A DNA stretch of 64,000 bases, taken from positions 1 through 64,000 of the forward strand of contig JBMOPW010000045.1 of NCBI GenBank assembly GCA_049322915.1. The letters are read 5' to 3'. A program made the translations under genes and the position numbers. Shown piece after piece: positions 44,738-50,437 of this stretch (position 1 is the first letter of the stretch; each line of letters starts with the position of its first letter). Under the pieces are notes generated by a model. The model made no database searches, was not told the origin of the DNA, and saw nothing but the letters and a program-made list of their open reading frames with translations. The stretch comes from Candidatus Zhuqueibacterota bacterium (GTDB taxonomy: Bacteria; Zhuqueibacterota; Zhuqueibacteria; Thermofontimicrobiales; Thermofontimicrobiaceae).

Positions 44738-45020
44738 TGCGGCTGTGACCGCATCATTTATATTAAATAATTTCTATATTTTCGAGAAAAGCTCACATGG
44801 CTCAAACCCGCCATCCGGATCGTAGGGCAACCGGAGGCAACTATCCGCGCTGCCTCACTGAAAATTGATCCCCACGCGTGAGCGGTCATGCATTGCCTGG
44901 AAATGAACAGCCGGTGCAGGGAGAGGAGTGGGTTCAATTTGTGTCATTGGCCTGACCAACTATAATGTCAGGTGAATCATCAATTATAAAATTGCCTGAA
45001 AAAATCAGGACTTCATCAAA

Positions 45021-45367
45021 CCGAAGTCAACGATAAGCCGAATTCTGTCGAGGACGATCATCTATCTGGGATCCCGATTGCTCGAGACCTCTAGCAACCT
45101 ACCCGAGAGTCAAACGAAGCGGGCCACTTCTTCTCTCCTATTTGGTCTTGCTCCGGACGGGGTTTACCTTGCTTCCACTGTTACCAGTGGAACGGTGAGC
45201 TCTTACCTCGCCTTTTCACCCTTATCCCGAATGCTCGGGACGGTATCTTTTCTGTGGCACTTTCCGTAGGCTCGCGCCTCCCTCATGTTATGGGGCGTCC
45301 TGCCCTGTGGAGTTCGGACTTTCCTCATCCCGATTAATTCGGGACGCGATCGTCTGTTTAACTTCGG
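45021..45367 (-). ncRNA. rnpB: RNase P RNA (class A)
   Basis: Minus strand GAGGAAAGTCCGAACTCC ... AGTGCCACAGAAA ... GGTAAACCCC ... ACAGAATTCGGCTTAT; the ends CCGAAGTTAA/TTGACTTCGG pair as P1. Confidence 0.96.
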
Positions 45368-45519: not shown

Positions 45520-46248
45520 CTATTCGTTTTTTTCCGTTGTGGCGTGTTTGCCATTTTCAAAAACTAAAATTCTGCCGCATACTTCACAGGAAATGAGACG
45601 ATTCATCTGCCGCACTTCAACGACTGTCTGCGCCGGGATGGTGGTGAAACACGAGGTGCAATTGTAATTTACAATGGTCGTGAGTGCGATGCCATCTTTT
45701 CCCTTGCGAATGCGATCGTAAGTGGAGACGAGCCTGTAATCAATCTCGGAGACGAGTTCCTTGCGCTGACTGGCTAACTTCTTTTCCTCCGCTTCGGTCG
45801 AGATCAATTTTTGCTGAAGATCGCTCTCCTTGACCTGTAAATTTTCCTGAACCTCCTGCGTCTTTGTTGCAAGCTGCGCAATGGACTCGACCTGTTTATC
45901 TTCTGCCTCCATCAGCTCAAGGGTTTTCAATTCAATATCATCAATCTGTTTTTCGAGATTTTCAATTTCAGCGGTGATTGCGTCATACTCTTTGTTTGTT
46001 TTGACAGAATAAATTTGTTCTTTATATTTATCCAGTTTTTCAATGAGGGCGTCCATGTCCATCTGATAATCCCGCTTTAACCGCTGCGTGTCCGCGTTGT
46101 TCTGCCTTGCTTTGGCCAATTTATCAGTCAGGTCAGCGAGATTTTCTTTCAATTCCTGAACAATTTCAGGAAGATCCCCTCTGACCGATTCCAGGTCCAT
46201 CAGCTTTTTATCTATTTTCTGTAGCTCAATCAATTTATACAAATCCAT
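45520..46248 (-). CDS. Coiled-coil C4-type zinc ribbon protein (DUF164/COG1579)
   Basis: LIELQKID, KTNKEYDAI, CTSC...CEVCGRIL; GAGGAGG RBS before ATG 46248; upstream of rnpB. Confidence 0.92.
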   Translation of the reverse strand: MDLYKLIELQKIDKKLMDLESVRGDLPEIVQELKENLADLTDKLAKARQNNADTQRLKRDYQMDMDALIEKLDKYKEQIYSVKTNKEYDAITAEIENLEKQIDDIELKTLELMEAEDKQVESIAQLATKTQEVQENLQVKESDLQQKLISTEAEEKKLASQRKELVSEIDYRLVSTYDRIRKGKDGIALTTIVNYNCTSCFTTIPAQTVVEVRQMNRLISCEVCGRILVFENGKHATTEKNE

Positions 46249-46309
46249 GGTGATAGATGCCTCCTCGCTGGAAATAATAATCGGTGTATCACTGGTTACG
46301 CCTGAAAAC

Positions 46310-46343
46310 AAAAAAAGTGCACCAATTTTTTTGGCACACTTTT
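46310..46343 (-). terminator. Intrinsic terminator in the leader of the zinc-ribbon gene (candidate attenuator)
   Basis: Minus strand AAAAGTGTGCCA-AAAAAAT-TGGTGCAC-TTTTTTT, about 60 nt upstream of the start codon. Confidence 0.75.
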
Positions 46344-46437
46344 ACGAGATACGCCACCCCCGTGGTGTATAAACCTGGGTCAGGCAATGCTGAAGTTCAA
46401 TACTCCAGTTATGGTTTTTTAGTCTTTTTGCTTGCAT
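46342..46437 (-). CDS. Putative 31-aa leader peptide MQAKRLKNHNWSIELQHCLTQVYTPRGWRIS
   Basis: uORF between promoter and terminator; its TAA overlaps the terminator 5' arm; no obvious SD. Confidence 0.4.
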   Translation of the reverse strand: MQAKRLKNHNWSIELQHCLTQVYTPRGWRIS

Positions 46438-46490
46438 ATATGTCAAGGAATATTGTCGATTTGAACTGTTATTTGATTTATTAATCGCTA

Positions 46491-46519
46491 AATATACAAA
46501 AATGAAGCTAAAGATGCAA
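46491..46519 (-). promoter_or_regulatory. Sigma70-type promoter for the leader/zinc-ribbon gene
   Basis: TTGCAT-N17-TATATT. Confidence 0.6.
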
Positions 46520-46987: not shown

Positions 46988-49900
46988 ATGAAGGTGAGGT
47001 ATTATTTTTTATCGGTGATAGCATTGATGACGGTCGCCTTCAGTTGCGGCCCGGAATATATCGGTCAGAGTCCGATTATCAGCATCTCTGCTGACACTGA
47101 ATTGCGGAACGGACCCGGCCCGGATTACGACAGGATCACAACGGTCAAGGCCGGAACCCAGGTCTTTCTCATGGAATCTGAGAATGACTGGCACAAAGTG
47201 CGCCTGGCAGATGGAACTATGGGGTGGATTTTCAAAGGAATCACCAAAACATCCACCGCCGAGAAAGTGGTGGTGTTGCAGGATGCCCGCATTCGGCGCG
47301 GACCAGGTGAAGAATACAGCGCATTTGCCATTGTCAAAAAAGGCAAAACACTGGATGCGCTGGGCACCCAGGGTAACTGGTACCAGGTCGATTTGACAGA
47401 TGGAAAAACCGGCTGGATCTCTCACAGCGATGCGGAAAAGGTCACCCATCGGAATTTGATCGCCAACAAGGATACCGCCATTTTATTAAATCCGGACGCG
47501 AACGCTCCTGTCATGGTCATGGTGGACAAGGGTACCGAGCTCATCCAACTTAAAAAACAGGGCGGCTATTATATGGTGCGGCTTCCCGGCGGCTCGACCG
47601 GGTGGATTCATGAAGATTACGTGGGAGCGGTGAAAGAGCGAACCCTCACTGTCAAAGAACGCGCTCTCATCCGATTTGGCCCTTCTGTCGAGTTCGACGT
47701 CGTCGGGACGGTGGAGAGAGGCGCGCGTTTGACCAAACTGGATCAGCGCGAAAGCTGGTATCAGGTGCGGACCCCGCAGGGCGAAGTAGGCTGGATTTAC
47801 AAGGATTTCATTCAGACCGTGGCCGGTACTCAGGGCAGCGTTGTATCTGAAGATCAGCCGGAATATGTAATCACAAATTCCGATTGCAACATTCGACAGG
47901 GATATGGCACCAACTGGGAAAAGATCGCTGAAGTCAAAAAGGGGACTTTGCTTGTAAGGATCGGTCAGAAAGATGAATGGTATCGCGTCAAAATGCCGGA
48001 CCAGAGAATCGGCTGGATCCGGCAGGACCTTGTGAATAGCAATGCGGATGTTCTTGTGGCGCTGGAAGATTGCAACATTCGATTGGGGCCAAGCACCAAT
48101 TATCGTGTGAAGTCAACCGTCGAAAAGGGAACGCCGCTGGCAAAGATCTCAGAACAGGATGGTTGGTCGCGAGTCTATCTGCCCAATGGCGAGATTGGCT
48201 GGATCCGCAACGACCTCCGGGCTGATAAGGATGCGGCTTTAATCACGAATCAGGAATGCAATGTGCGCGAAGGGCCGGGCACAAATTACACCCAGATTGA
48301 TCGGATTTCCAAGGGCACTTCATTGAAAGAGATCGGCCGGCAGAATGAATGGCGTCAGGTTCAATTGCCATCCGGGAGAACCGGCTGGATACGGGAAGAC
48401 CTGCTGGAAGGGACAGAGAATCAACTTGTCGCCAATGAACGCGCCAATCTCCGCAAAGGCCCGGGCACCGAATATGTTATTGTCACTGAAGTCGAAAAAT
48501 TGACGCCGATGACGCTGATCGGAGAGCAGGGGGATTGGTACAAAGTCCGACTCAAATCCGGCACCACGGGCTGGATTCGGAAAGACCTTGTTTCCTATTC
48601 CTATTATCCATCCGTCTCCGGTACTCAATCTCATAACTCACCCGGTAGTGGCGCATCCTCGTCTGGTGGTTCCAGTTCCAGTTCGTCGTCGCCTCTGTAT
48701 TCCGGCGTCAAGATGAAAATCACCGATCCGGTGAAGATTCGGATGGGACCAGGCACCGATCACCCGGAAATTACCACGCTGACGACGGGCACGGAAGTCA
48801 CGCGGATCGATCAGCAGGGGGAGTGGTTCGAAGTGATAACGCGCAGTGGTACAAAAGGCTTTGTCCACCAGAGCGGCTTTAATATTGGCAGCCCAACCAG
48901 CCTGGTCATGAAGCAACGGGGCAATATTCGGCGCGGGCCAAGCACAAACTTCACTGTCCTGACGACGCTGGAGCAGGGCGCTGAAGTGACCAAAATTGAG
49001 CAGCGCGATGACTGGATTTATGTGAAGATTAGCAATGACGAAAAAGGCTGGATTCAAAAGGATTTGGTTGGCCCGAAAACAATAACACCGCTGGTCCCCA
49101 GCGCCAAACCGGAAATTGGCAAATTCGTGACGACAGAGAAAGTGAATATCCGTAAAGGGCCGGGGACCGATTATCCCATTGTGAGATCAGTCCTTCCCAA
49201 TACGACCGTCAATATCATTGGCAAGCACGAAGATTGGTACGAGGTGAATTTGATAACCGGCGAGTCCGGCTGGATGTTCTCCAAGCTCGGGGATAAGGAG
49301 GTCTATAAAAAAATTATCGTGACGAACAAAACAGAGGTGCATCAGGAACCGGACTCAGAATCCGGCGTGTTGGCCAACGTGGAAGCCGGCGAAATTTTTG
49401 ACCCCATTGCCACGCAGGGGAGTTGGTACCGAATCACCTACAAGCGAGGCGACACTGGCTGGATTTCTGTGGGAAATGTGGCTGAGTTGAAGTACCCTCA
49501 GGTGTACGTGAACTCCGGCACCGTGAATATTCATCGGAATCCCGATAAAAACGCGCCGAGAATTGCAGTCGTTAAAGAGGGTATTGAGTTAACGCCCATT
49601 AACGAGGAAGAGGATTGGCTTTTTGTGGTGTTGCCGCGCGGCGACAAAGGCTGGATTGAAAAAGCATTGGTGAATCGTCAGAAATATCCCCGCGTCATCA
49701 TTGTCAAAGAGACAAAAGCCTATGAACAACCGACCAACAGCAGCCGGGCCATCGCTTCTCTGTTCACGGACGATGAATTTGCTACACTCGACAAAAAAGA
49801 TAACTGGCATAAAGTCCTGCTTCGCGGGTCTGAAATCGGCTGGGTCTATGGCGGCTATTTGAAGGAGAAGTCGCGCGGAAAGCTGCTGGTGAGGGAAAAT

Positions 49901-50437
49901 TCCAGGGTGCGAATGGGGCCCGGGACCGATTACAAACCGATTGGCAATGTCAGCGCCGGGGAGCAGTTGAATTGGCTGGATGAAAAAAATAACTGGTGCC
50001 AGGTTGAGATGAAGCCGAAAGAGGTGGGGTGGATTTTAGTCGACCTGGCAAAGGACATCACGCTGCCACCTGTGACTGCCTCGAAAAATGCCTCGGCCTA
50101 CGCCGGGCCGGGAGCCAATTACGCTGTGGTTGGCACGGTGAAGTCCGGGACGAAGTATTCACCACGAACAAAGAAAAATGGCTGGTATCAGGTGGATTTA
50201 TCCAATGGTACCCAGGGCTGGATCAAAGAAGATGTTTTTACGTCGCAAAAAACCCGCGTTGTTTTTACTATGGAGAAGTCGAATATCCGAAGCGGACCAG
50301 GCCAGTTCTACGAAGTCGTCGAGCAAGTCGAACCAGCGACGGACCTGACGATCATTGGCATCGAAGGCGACTGGTATTATGTCGAATTGCAGGATGGAAA
50401 GAAAGGGTACATCAAGAAAGATTTGGTTTTCGAATAA
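46988..50437 (+). CDS. Lipoprotein composed of 17 tandem bacterial SH3 (SH3b) domains
   Basis: Lipobox AFSC; repeats of N(I/L/V)RxGPG...W(Y)xV...GW(I); Ser/Gly linker after domain 8; GGAGG RBS. Confidence 0.9.
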   Translation: MKVRYYFLSVIALMTVAFSCGPEYIGQSPIISISADTELRNGPGPDYDRITTVKAGTQVFLMESENDWHKVRLADGTMGWIFKGITKTSTAEKVVVLQDARIRRGPGEEYSAFAIVKKGKTLDALGTQGNWYQVDLTDGKTGWISHSDAEKVTHRNLIANKDTAILLNPDANAPVMVMVDKGTELIQLKKQGGYYMVRLPGGSTGWIHEDYVGAVKERTLTVKERALIRFGPSVEFDVVGTVERGARLTKLDQRESWYQVRTPQGEVGWIYKDFIQTVAGTQGSVVSEDQPEYVITNSDCNIRQGYGTNWEKIAEVKKGTLLVRIGQKDEWYRVKMPDQRIGWIRQDLVNSNADVLVALEDCNIRLGPSTNYRVKSTVEKGTPLAKISEQDGWSRVYLPNGEIGWIRNDLRADKDAALITNQECNVREGPGTNYTQIDRISKGTSLKEIGRQNEWRQVQLPSGRTGWIREDLLEGTENQLVANERANLRKGPGTEYVIVTEVEKLTPMTLIGEQGDWYKVRLKSGTTGWIRKDLVSYSYYPSVSGTQSHNSPGSGASSSGGSSSSSSSPLYSGVKMKITDPVKIRMGPGTDHPEITTLTTGTEVTRIDQQGEWFEVITRSGTKGFVHQSGFNIGSPTSLVMKQRGNIRRGPSTNFTVLTTLEQGAEVTKIEQRDDWIYVKISNDEKGWIQKDLVGPKTITPLVPSAKPEIGKFVTTEKVNIRKGPGTDYPIVRSVLPNTTVNIIGKHEDWYEVNLITGESGWMFSKLGDKEVYKKIIVTNKTEVHQEPDSESGVLANVEAGEIFDPIATQGSWYRITYKRGDTGWISVGNVAELKYPQVYVNSGTVNIHRNPDKNAPRIAVVKEGIELTPINEEEDWLFVVLPRGDKGWIEKALVNRQKYPRVIIVKETKAYEQPTNSSRAIASLFTDDEFATLDKKDNWHKVLLRGSEIGWVYGGYLKEKSRGKLLVRENSRVRMGPGTDYKPIGNVSAGEQLNWLDEKNNWCQVEMKPKEVGWILVDLAKDITLPPVTASKNASAYAGPGANYAVVGTVKSGTKYSPRTKKNGWYQVDLSNGTQGWIKEDVFTSQKTRVVFTMEKSNIRSGPGQFYEVVEQVEPATDLTIIGIEGDWYYVELQDGKKGYIKKDLVFE

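Follow-up and report, generated by a model that had tools for sequence, protein, structure and literature searches.

We found that a promoter-uORF-terminator leader upstream of a gene of the DUF164/CT398 protein family is, as judged from comparison with its relatives, a real and conserved element. It was identified on the minus strand of the window, by which we mean the whole 64,000-nucleotide stretch of DNA analysed here, and it consists of a predicted promoter, a short upstream open reading frame (uORF) and a predicted intrinsic terminator. On balance we lean towards reading it as a pyrBI-type ribosome-occlusion attenuator whose sequence-specific terminator resembles that of the rimP leader, possibly under feedback by the downstream protein.

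All parts of the leader and of the operon behind it lie on the minus strand. The predicted sigma70-type promoter TTGCAT-17-TATATT (46491..46519; TTGCAT at 46519-46514, TATATT at 46496-46491) was missed by the consensus scanner, TTGCAT agreeing with TTGACA at 3/6 positions. It is followed by the uORF of 31 codons (46342..46437), which ends 6 nt 5' of the conserved stem core, and by the predicted intrinsic terminator with its U-tract (46310..46343), whose arms are of the form RTGYRY-loop-RTRCAY with conserved stem letters. The preliminary description had divided this region into segment 1 (46370-46362), segment 2 (46357-46349), segment 3 (46339-46332) and segment 4 (46324-46317), followed by a T7 tract (46316-46310); these, the promoter and the uORF were all found on the minus strand as it had named them. 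Its observation that the uORF stop codon overlaps the 5' arm of the terminator was likewise correct, as the stop (46344-46342) lies in the A-run that extends this arm. Having an A-run on its 5' side, the hairpin is potentially bidirectional.

Downstream of the terminator, the first gene is that of the DUF164/CT398-family zinc-ribbon protein (45520..46248, 242 aa), with the Shine-Dalgarno sequence GAGGAGG at 46260..46266, at a clear distance from the hairpin. Then come rnpB, encoding class A RNase P RNA (45019..45365; RF00010, 312 bits), and terminator-like hairpins at the rnpB 3' end (44995..45028). The preliminary description had made its reading depend on the interval between terminator and zinc-ribbon gene, and there the consensus scanner called no minus-strand promoter in the window. 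On the plus strand, an 11/12 sigma70 match lies antisense inside the zinc-ribbon gene (46001-46028) and faces the leader, so that the hairpin could terminate its transcript as well; this exact pattern occurs at this position in the window genome only and is not kept among relatives. The product of a divergent plus-strand gene (46988-50437) is 1149 aa long, begins in a signal-like manner and matches bacterial SH3 in 17 stretches.

The window terminator has a predicted stability of -14.7 kcal/mol (z -4.91), a value that 0/200 shuffles equalled, and its pattern gave one match in the window versus none in 100 shuffles. Sixty-one genomes were searched; a full or near-full DUF164 gene was present in 57, and one of these with only 33 nt upstream was dropped, leaving 56 same-class KSB1 loci that span 12 families and about 41 genera. 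The hairpin was found upstream of the gene in 56/56 of these loci (49 by pattern, 7 by eye), in every case with a U-tract behind the arms RTGYRY and RTRCAY; in summary form, the core pattern is RTGYAY-loop-RTGCAY-Tn. In an alignment of 46 hairpins, 97.3% of the cells are paired; two-sided changes occur at three pairs (30 cells), and a U-A and a G-C stem pair are invariant. The structure used for this was drawn from the same 46 sequences, 7 of them chosen by pattern. The covariation and the invariant pairs together argue for an RNA hairpin whose letters are under selection too. The preliminary description had looked to aligned upstream regions for covariation and peptide conservation: in our alignments the terminator covaries and the uORF keeps its position, and neither the peptide nor the alternative stems are kept.

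The same or a near-identical TTG..-17-TA...T hexamer pair stood upstream in 53/53 same-class loci scored (two of them doubtful), at 91-270 nt from the hairpin, and the interval between promoter and hairpin could not be aligned between genera. In other KSB1 classes the strict hairpin pattern was located directly 5' of the gene in 31/38 genomes, and all ten of the pattern misses inspected (6 other-class, 4 same-class) carried a hairpin variant. A hairpin model returned 27 matches at E<=0.05 in 24/41 genomes, 26 of them at the DUF164 leader and many of them training sequences; 17/41 genomes gave no match under the search filters. The hairpin motif also flagged two truncated DUF164 genes that had been overlooked by the single-protein search, and a scan of a genome collection returned one locus. 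The preliminary description had recognised no riboswitch consensus. An Rfam scan of the leader gave no match to a riboswitch, T-box or leader family at the gathering threshold, and a T-box or riboswitch was rejected on this ground; at E<=10 only sub-threshold chance matches appeared. The best Phe_leader score in the leaders was 24 bits at one locus, against a cut-off of 55. In alignment A5 both arms are commonly extended, the 5' one by CACC(TC) and the 3' one by (G)AGGTG, and we take these extensions to resemble an anti-Shine-Dalgarno and a Shine-Dalgarno sequence; this likeness leaves the invariant TG/CA pairs unaccounted for.

The uORFs of the leader kept their position and were free in sequence. 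Their lengths ranged from 16 to 56 codons, with a stop 3-16 nt 5' of the hairpin or a frame that enters it. A uORF was counted as passing if it started with ATG, had 20 or more codons 5' of the stem core, and either stopped within 20 nt of the core or read through. In a hand tally, 47/56 same-class loci passed this rule: in 25 the stop lies 3-16 nt 5' of the core, and in 22 the frame continues into or through the hairpin. The nine failing loci comprise seven with GTG/TTG frames of at least 24 codons and two with ATG frames of 18 and 19 codons. The corresponding chance rate is 12-22% per locus, a hand estimate from base composition for loci that, as kin, are not independent. A same-genus relative has a 26-codon uORF with the same stop as that of the window, and close kin retained the frame even though a stop was gained or lost (L016 vs. 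L017; L131 vs. L149) or three nucleotides were deleted (L136 vs. L156). The uORF peptides have no residues common to the 53 same-class loci or to alignments A4 and A9, which bears out the earlier remark that there is no run of control codons, and the window peptide has no Pfam match. A clear Shine-Dalgarno sequence is missing before many same-class uORFs, that of the window among them.

Of 20 loci from the other KSB1 classes, 7 passed the strict ATG rule. For 12 other-class loci listed with ATG-only starts, 5/12 passed in the sense direction and 5/12 had ATG frames antisense to the same stretch, a control that is biased because the hairpin itself provides an antisense ATG in some loci. When TTG, GTG and one CTG start were allowed, all 20 loci had a frame of at least 18 codons to the hairpin, at a chance level that is then higher; many of these frames are preceded by GGAG or GAGG, so that a clear Shine-Dalgarno sequence is often present. 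Among metagenome loci chosen by hairpin and tRNA only, 21/23 spacers passed the strict ATG rule, and the two that failed hold frames of 16-17 codons. These 23 spacers, from which one near-duplicate had been left out, represent roughly a dozen lineages, and their frames were confirmed as stop-free in the alignment (18) or by eye (5). As read from these comparisons, selection maintains an open frame, whatever its sequence, whose end falls within a ribosome footprint of the hairpin or which crosses the hairpin.

The downstream gene belongs to the DUF164/CT398 protein family, as the preliminary description had proposed. Its product matched PF24481 (E 7.7e-17) and PF02591 (E 5.1e-9) and consists of a coiled-coil hairpin and a C4 zinc ribbon (structure model pLDDT 92.5); Foldseek searches with the model returned CT398 (4ilo, TM 0.85), HP0958 and MSMEG_4306. 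It scored 89 bits, under the NCBIfam CdsZ equivalog cut-off of 275, and homologues at approximately 50% identity carry the name 'candidate division KSB1 bacterium'. The RNase P RNA named in the same description was confirmed by RF00010, and rnpB was located 3' of the zinc-ribbon gene in 20/20 KSB1 loci scanned. At two loci it begins 13 nt (L011) and 31 nt (L062) past the protein match, and rnpB is likely co-transcribed with the zinc-ribbon gene. In two RNA runs with 5-6% of words, the contigs covered rnpB of other organisms and none of the leader. A second, short PF02591 protein, an open frame of about 116 aa without the long coiled coil, was noted elsewhere in the window genome (G000:C3:58743-58838, L074); in most relatives it shows up as a weak match, and no hairpin match was found near it.

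The leader is not confined to the class of the window genome. When metagenomes were scanned blind using the hairpin pattern, at least 120 loci came up, of which 80 were listed with flanks. Of these 80 listed matches, 27 sit at a DUF164 gene block, mostly right behind a tRNA(CAT) gene; 24 have tRNA(CAT) approximately 70-155 nt upstream on the same strand, with tRNA-Val between tRNA(CAT) and hairpin in two of them; and 21 have the zinc-ribbon codon pattern downstream. At 8/8 metagenome loci inspected the next gene was of the DUF164 or Nif3 type, and the blocks seen were rpoD-tRNA-hairpin-DUF164-RNase H and dnaG-tRNAs-hairpin-DUF164-guaB, all gene names here being read from translations. The same gene order is reported for Deltaproteobacteria, Nitrospirae and others (PMC3372290). 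The other 53/80 listed matches had no link to a DUF164 block; four of them were inspected and lay at gene ends or between other genes. At two Bacteroidales loci examined, the hairpin was absent.

Within KSB1, tRNA(CAT) is positioned between promoter and uORF in 23/31 loci of other classes, approximately 70-155 nt upstream of the hairpin, and at this site in none of 57 same-class genomes. ARAGORN called it as Met; we presume from the resemblance of its sequence that it is closer to tRNA-Ile2. An AUA control codon sensing tRNA-Ile2 was ruled out, as the window uORF contains no ATA. The ancestral layout appears to have been promoter-tRNA(CAT)-uORF-terminator-DUF164, from which the class of the window genome lost the tRNA at this site and kept the rest. 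In this class and in families f14, f16 and f21, tRNA(CAT) of this type, where found, is on a contig other than that of the DUF164 gene. The distribution suggests that tRNA(CAT) left the site more than once or early, with the leader staying intact. In a Parabacteroides record (L239:2450-4604) the DUF164 gene is directly followed by tilS and then rho. TilS modifies tRNA-Ile2(CAU), and a functional link between tilS behind the DUF164 gene here and tRNA(CAT) ahead of it elsewhere is possible.

Related hairpins were also seen away from DUF164 genes. Near-identical arms occur in the window genome in the terminator after an L28-like gene (rpmB, by reading; G000:C21:2051-2086, L075), which was the second-best model match. 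A longer related hairpin is found three times in one genome (G002:C48, C75 and C82; L078-L080), once overlapping the start of an acylase-like gene, and ten viral contigs (L271-L280) contain a 36-nt version, with flanks common to three of the four that were aligned. The idea of a hairpin regulon was rejected for now because the second copies inspected (the rpmB terminator, a convergent terminator, a coding-region match and two unclear upstream sites) share no common gene class.

In the ribosome-occlusion reading, a ribosome that trails RNA polymerase (RNAP) through the uORF would sit on the terminator's 5' arm, so that transcription would proceed into the zinc-ribbon gene and likely rnpB too; if the ribosome lagged or was not loaded, the hairpin would fold and transcription would end at about 46310. 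The peptide sequence would be irrelevant, and what would count is the position of the frame. In Escherichia coli, the ribosome suppresses a terminator almost fully when the stop codon is about 10 nt away or less, and in amino-acid attenuators the two are kept over 20 nt apart (PMC4824070). A frame that ends near or crosses the hairpin, taken together with this suppression geometry, is what leads us to the occlusion reading. Ribosomes are also reported to catch RNAP rarely within the first 100 nt unless a pause site is present (PMC4824070), and by eye we saw no conserved U-rich or other pause tract upstream of the hairpin; the missing pause is the weak point of the occlusion model. A second input may act at the stem, since its letters are kept beyond the needs of pairing, either through a factor or through a sequence-specific pause. 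The likeliest factor might be the downstream DUF164 protein, in a feedback loop like that of NusA at the rimP leader, and this protein might supply the missing pause; we put this forward tentatively and at somewhat short of an even chance. Members of the family are predicted to sit on the RNAP beta-prime shelf/jaw, crossing the swivel module (bioRxiv 10.64898/2026.07.15.738315), and the Borrelia member BB0713 is reported to sediment together with RNAP and to cause antitermination at a trpL reporter in vivo (bioRxiv 10.1101/2025.09.19.677338). Antitermination of the BB0713 kind would point to the wrong sign for negative feedback. Throughout this scheme we infer uORF translation, termination, the sign of the ribosome effect, feedback and rnpB co-transcription.

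The preliminary description had instead proposed a classical 1:2/2:3/3:4 attenuator, in which a stalled ribosome releases segment 2 for pairing with segment 3. We regard this as very improbable. Both the 1:2 and the 2:3 pairing can be drawn in the window genome, and the 1:2 hairpin (46349..46370) is borderline against shuffles (z -1.98). However, the fragment forming 2:3 folds at chance (z 0.00), with G-U making up three of its eight possible pairs, and is outcompeted by 1:2, which is the best structure when 92 nt of the leader, as far as the 5' arm, are folded. The 1:2 hairpin is itself species-specific and lies outside the conserved element: at the same-genus locus L002, segments 1 and 2 are replaced and both pairings are missing, and the stop codon and both terminator arms are identical. 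No shared antiterminator was found across 10 leader folds. There are neither control codons nor a conserved peptide, the uORF stop is too near the terminator, and a classical attenuator would not tolerate the 22/47 uORFs that run through the hairpin. Three defining features were tested and none was found, so that on sequence grounds the four-segment model is largely refuted and the leader does not appear to be a classical attenuator. The broader wording of the same description, a translation-sensing attenuator or unknown cis-regulatory RNA, stands because the leader is conserved, the uORF is tied to the terminator, and control codons are absent.

Three other explanations were weighed against ribosome occlusion. 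One is that the switch is a protein-read terminator as proposed for rimP, with the DUF164 protein or NusA reading the stem. The uORF would then do no more than maintain translation of the leader, or its effect would have the opposite sign, as could happen if its Shine-Dalgarno sequence paired with CACC in the 5' arm whenever a ribosome is absent. The retention of stem letters in very distant loci, with two invariant pairs, fits this, as does the rimP leader itself, which has a conserved stem, no antiterminator and a proposed NusA feedback (PMC2965389). The best fold of one leader (L106, 201-293) does pair the uORF Shine-Dalgarno sequence with the 5' arm; yet such pairing was clear in just 1/10 folds, and the pile-up of stops 3-16 nt before the core (25/47) is left unexplained, so we consider a switch of this kind unlikely. 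Alternatively, the hairpin could be an unregulated step-down terminator that once ended a tRNA(CAT) transcript and lets a fixed fraction of polymerases pass, set by the uORF. The tRNA(CAT) genes upstream in 23/31 other-class loci and 24/80 listed metagenome matches agree with this, and similar hairpins act as plain terminators, e.g. after rpmB in the window genome. Against it, the promoter-uORF-hairpin unit is intact in 56/56 same-class loci, all without the tRNA, a fixed fraction would be more simply reached through a weaker promoter once the tRNA was gone, and plain terminators need not conserve their letters; we judge it quite improbable. Finally, the uORF could be a small gene equipped with a terminator, or the unit a trans-acting short RNA like GraL, with the zinc-ribbon gene separately promoted; we find this hardly credible. 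Promoter, ORF and terminator do make a complete unit, and greA leaders give a trans-acting RNA (PMC6829880), but neither peptide nor RNA is conserved between genera, in 22/47 loci termination would truncate the ORF upstream of its stop codon, and as little as about 25 nt separates the U-tract from the start codon (L030, L053), which leaves no room for a promoter.

The occlusion reading, with its sequence-specific terminator, bears on a widespread family whose members are predicted to bind RNAP. A conserved terminator in the family's own leader offers a direct and cheap functional assay: does the DUF164 protein alter termination or pausing at its own leader? The known elongation factors NusA and GreA work on their own leaders likewise. 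A bolder proposal, which we advance as speculative and rather unlikely, is that DUF164/CT398 is an unrecognised general RNAP elongation/termination factor and that it regulates how much of itself and of RNase P RNA is made by means of a cross-phylum leader, the specific terminator reading the level of the factor and the sequence-free uORF reading coupling. If the occlusion reading is true, natural coupling-sensing attenuators would include, besides pyrBI, a further and rare family whose leaders occur across an entire uncultivated phylum and also in distant lineages. Such a leader would be a candidate site of control over RNase P RNA and over the split between tRNA(CAT) and what lies 3' of it.

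We compared the leader with known systems. The trpL, hisL, pheL and leuL attenuators have the same promoter, leader ORF and terminator, but the leader described here lacks control codons and conserved 1:2/2:3 helices, and its stop lies <20 nt from the terminator or past it. The greA leader is similar in that a leader terminator mediates autoregulation of an RNAP-binding factor, although no leader ORF is described for it in the available text (PMC6829880); greA and rnk leaders have predicted antiterminator structures (PMC2965389), and no sequence relation was found between the greA leader and ours. At the level of the gene, the downstream protein has the fold of the DUF164/CT398 (CdsZ)/HP0958 (FlgZ)/MSMEG_4306 family, and the synteny matches the known dnaG-rpoD-tRNA-Met-Nif3/DUF164-rnhA/rnpB neighbourhood (PMC3372290). 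The main text of that paper does not contain the word 'terminator' or describe a leader element. Nor was the element described in the openly accessible literature that we searched.

The two closest systems are the rimP and pyrBI leaders. The rimP leader of metY-rimP-nusA-infB has conserved stem letters and no antiterminator, precedes an operon for an RNAP-binding factor and has a proposed feedback (PMC2965389); in E. coli it lies behind a tRNA gene and contains terminators t1 and t2 (PMC6511841). A stem kept beyond pairing and the lack of an antiterminator were found here as well. The leader here is nevertheless not a rimP leader proper, as motif and downstream gene differ: rimP has a GGGc...gCCC stem in another operon, whereas our arms are GTGCAC-like, and a positionally conserved uORF is not reported for rimP in the available text of PMC2965389 and PMC6511841. 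In pyrL/pyrBI of E. coli, a short leader ORF abuts or overlaps an intrinsic terminator, there are no control codons and no RNA antiterminator, and a coupled ribosome would stop the hairpin from folding (PMC4824070, PMC5021804). A leader ORF reaching or crossing the 5' arm was found here in 47/56 same-class loci, 21/23 metagenome spacers and, with alternative starts, 20/20 other-class loci. The differences from pyrL are that no conserved U-rich pause tract was seen by eye, that the stem sequence is conserved, that our leader is often fused 3' of a tRNA, and that it would control RNase P RNA and a protein predicted to bind RNAP rather than pyrimidine synthesis. In its working the leader would most resemble pyrL combined with a terminator of the rimP type, and it is likely a previously undescribed switch.
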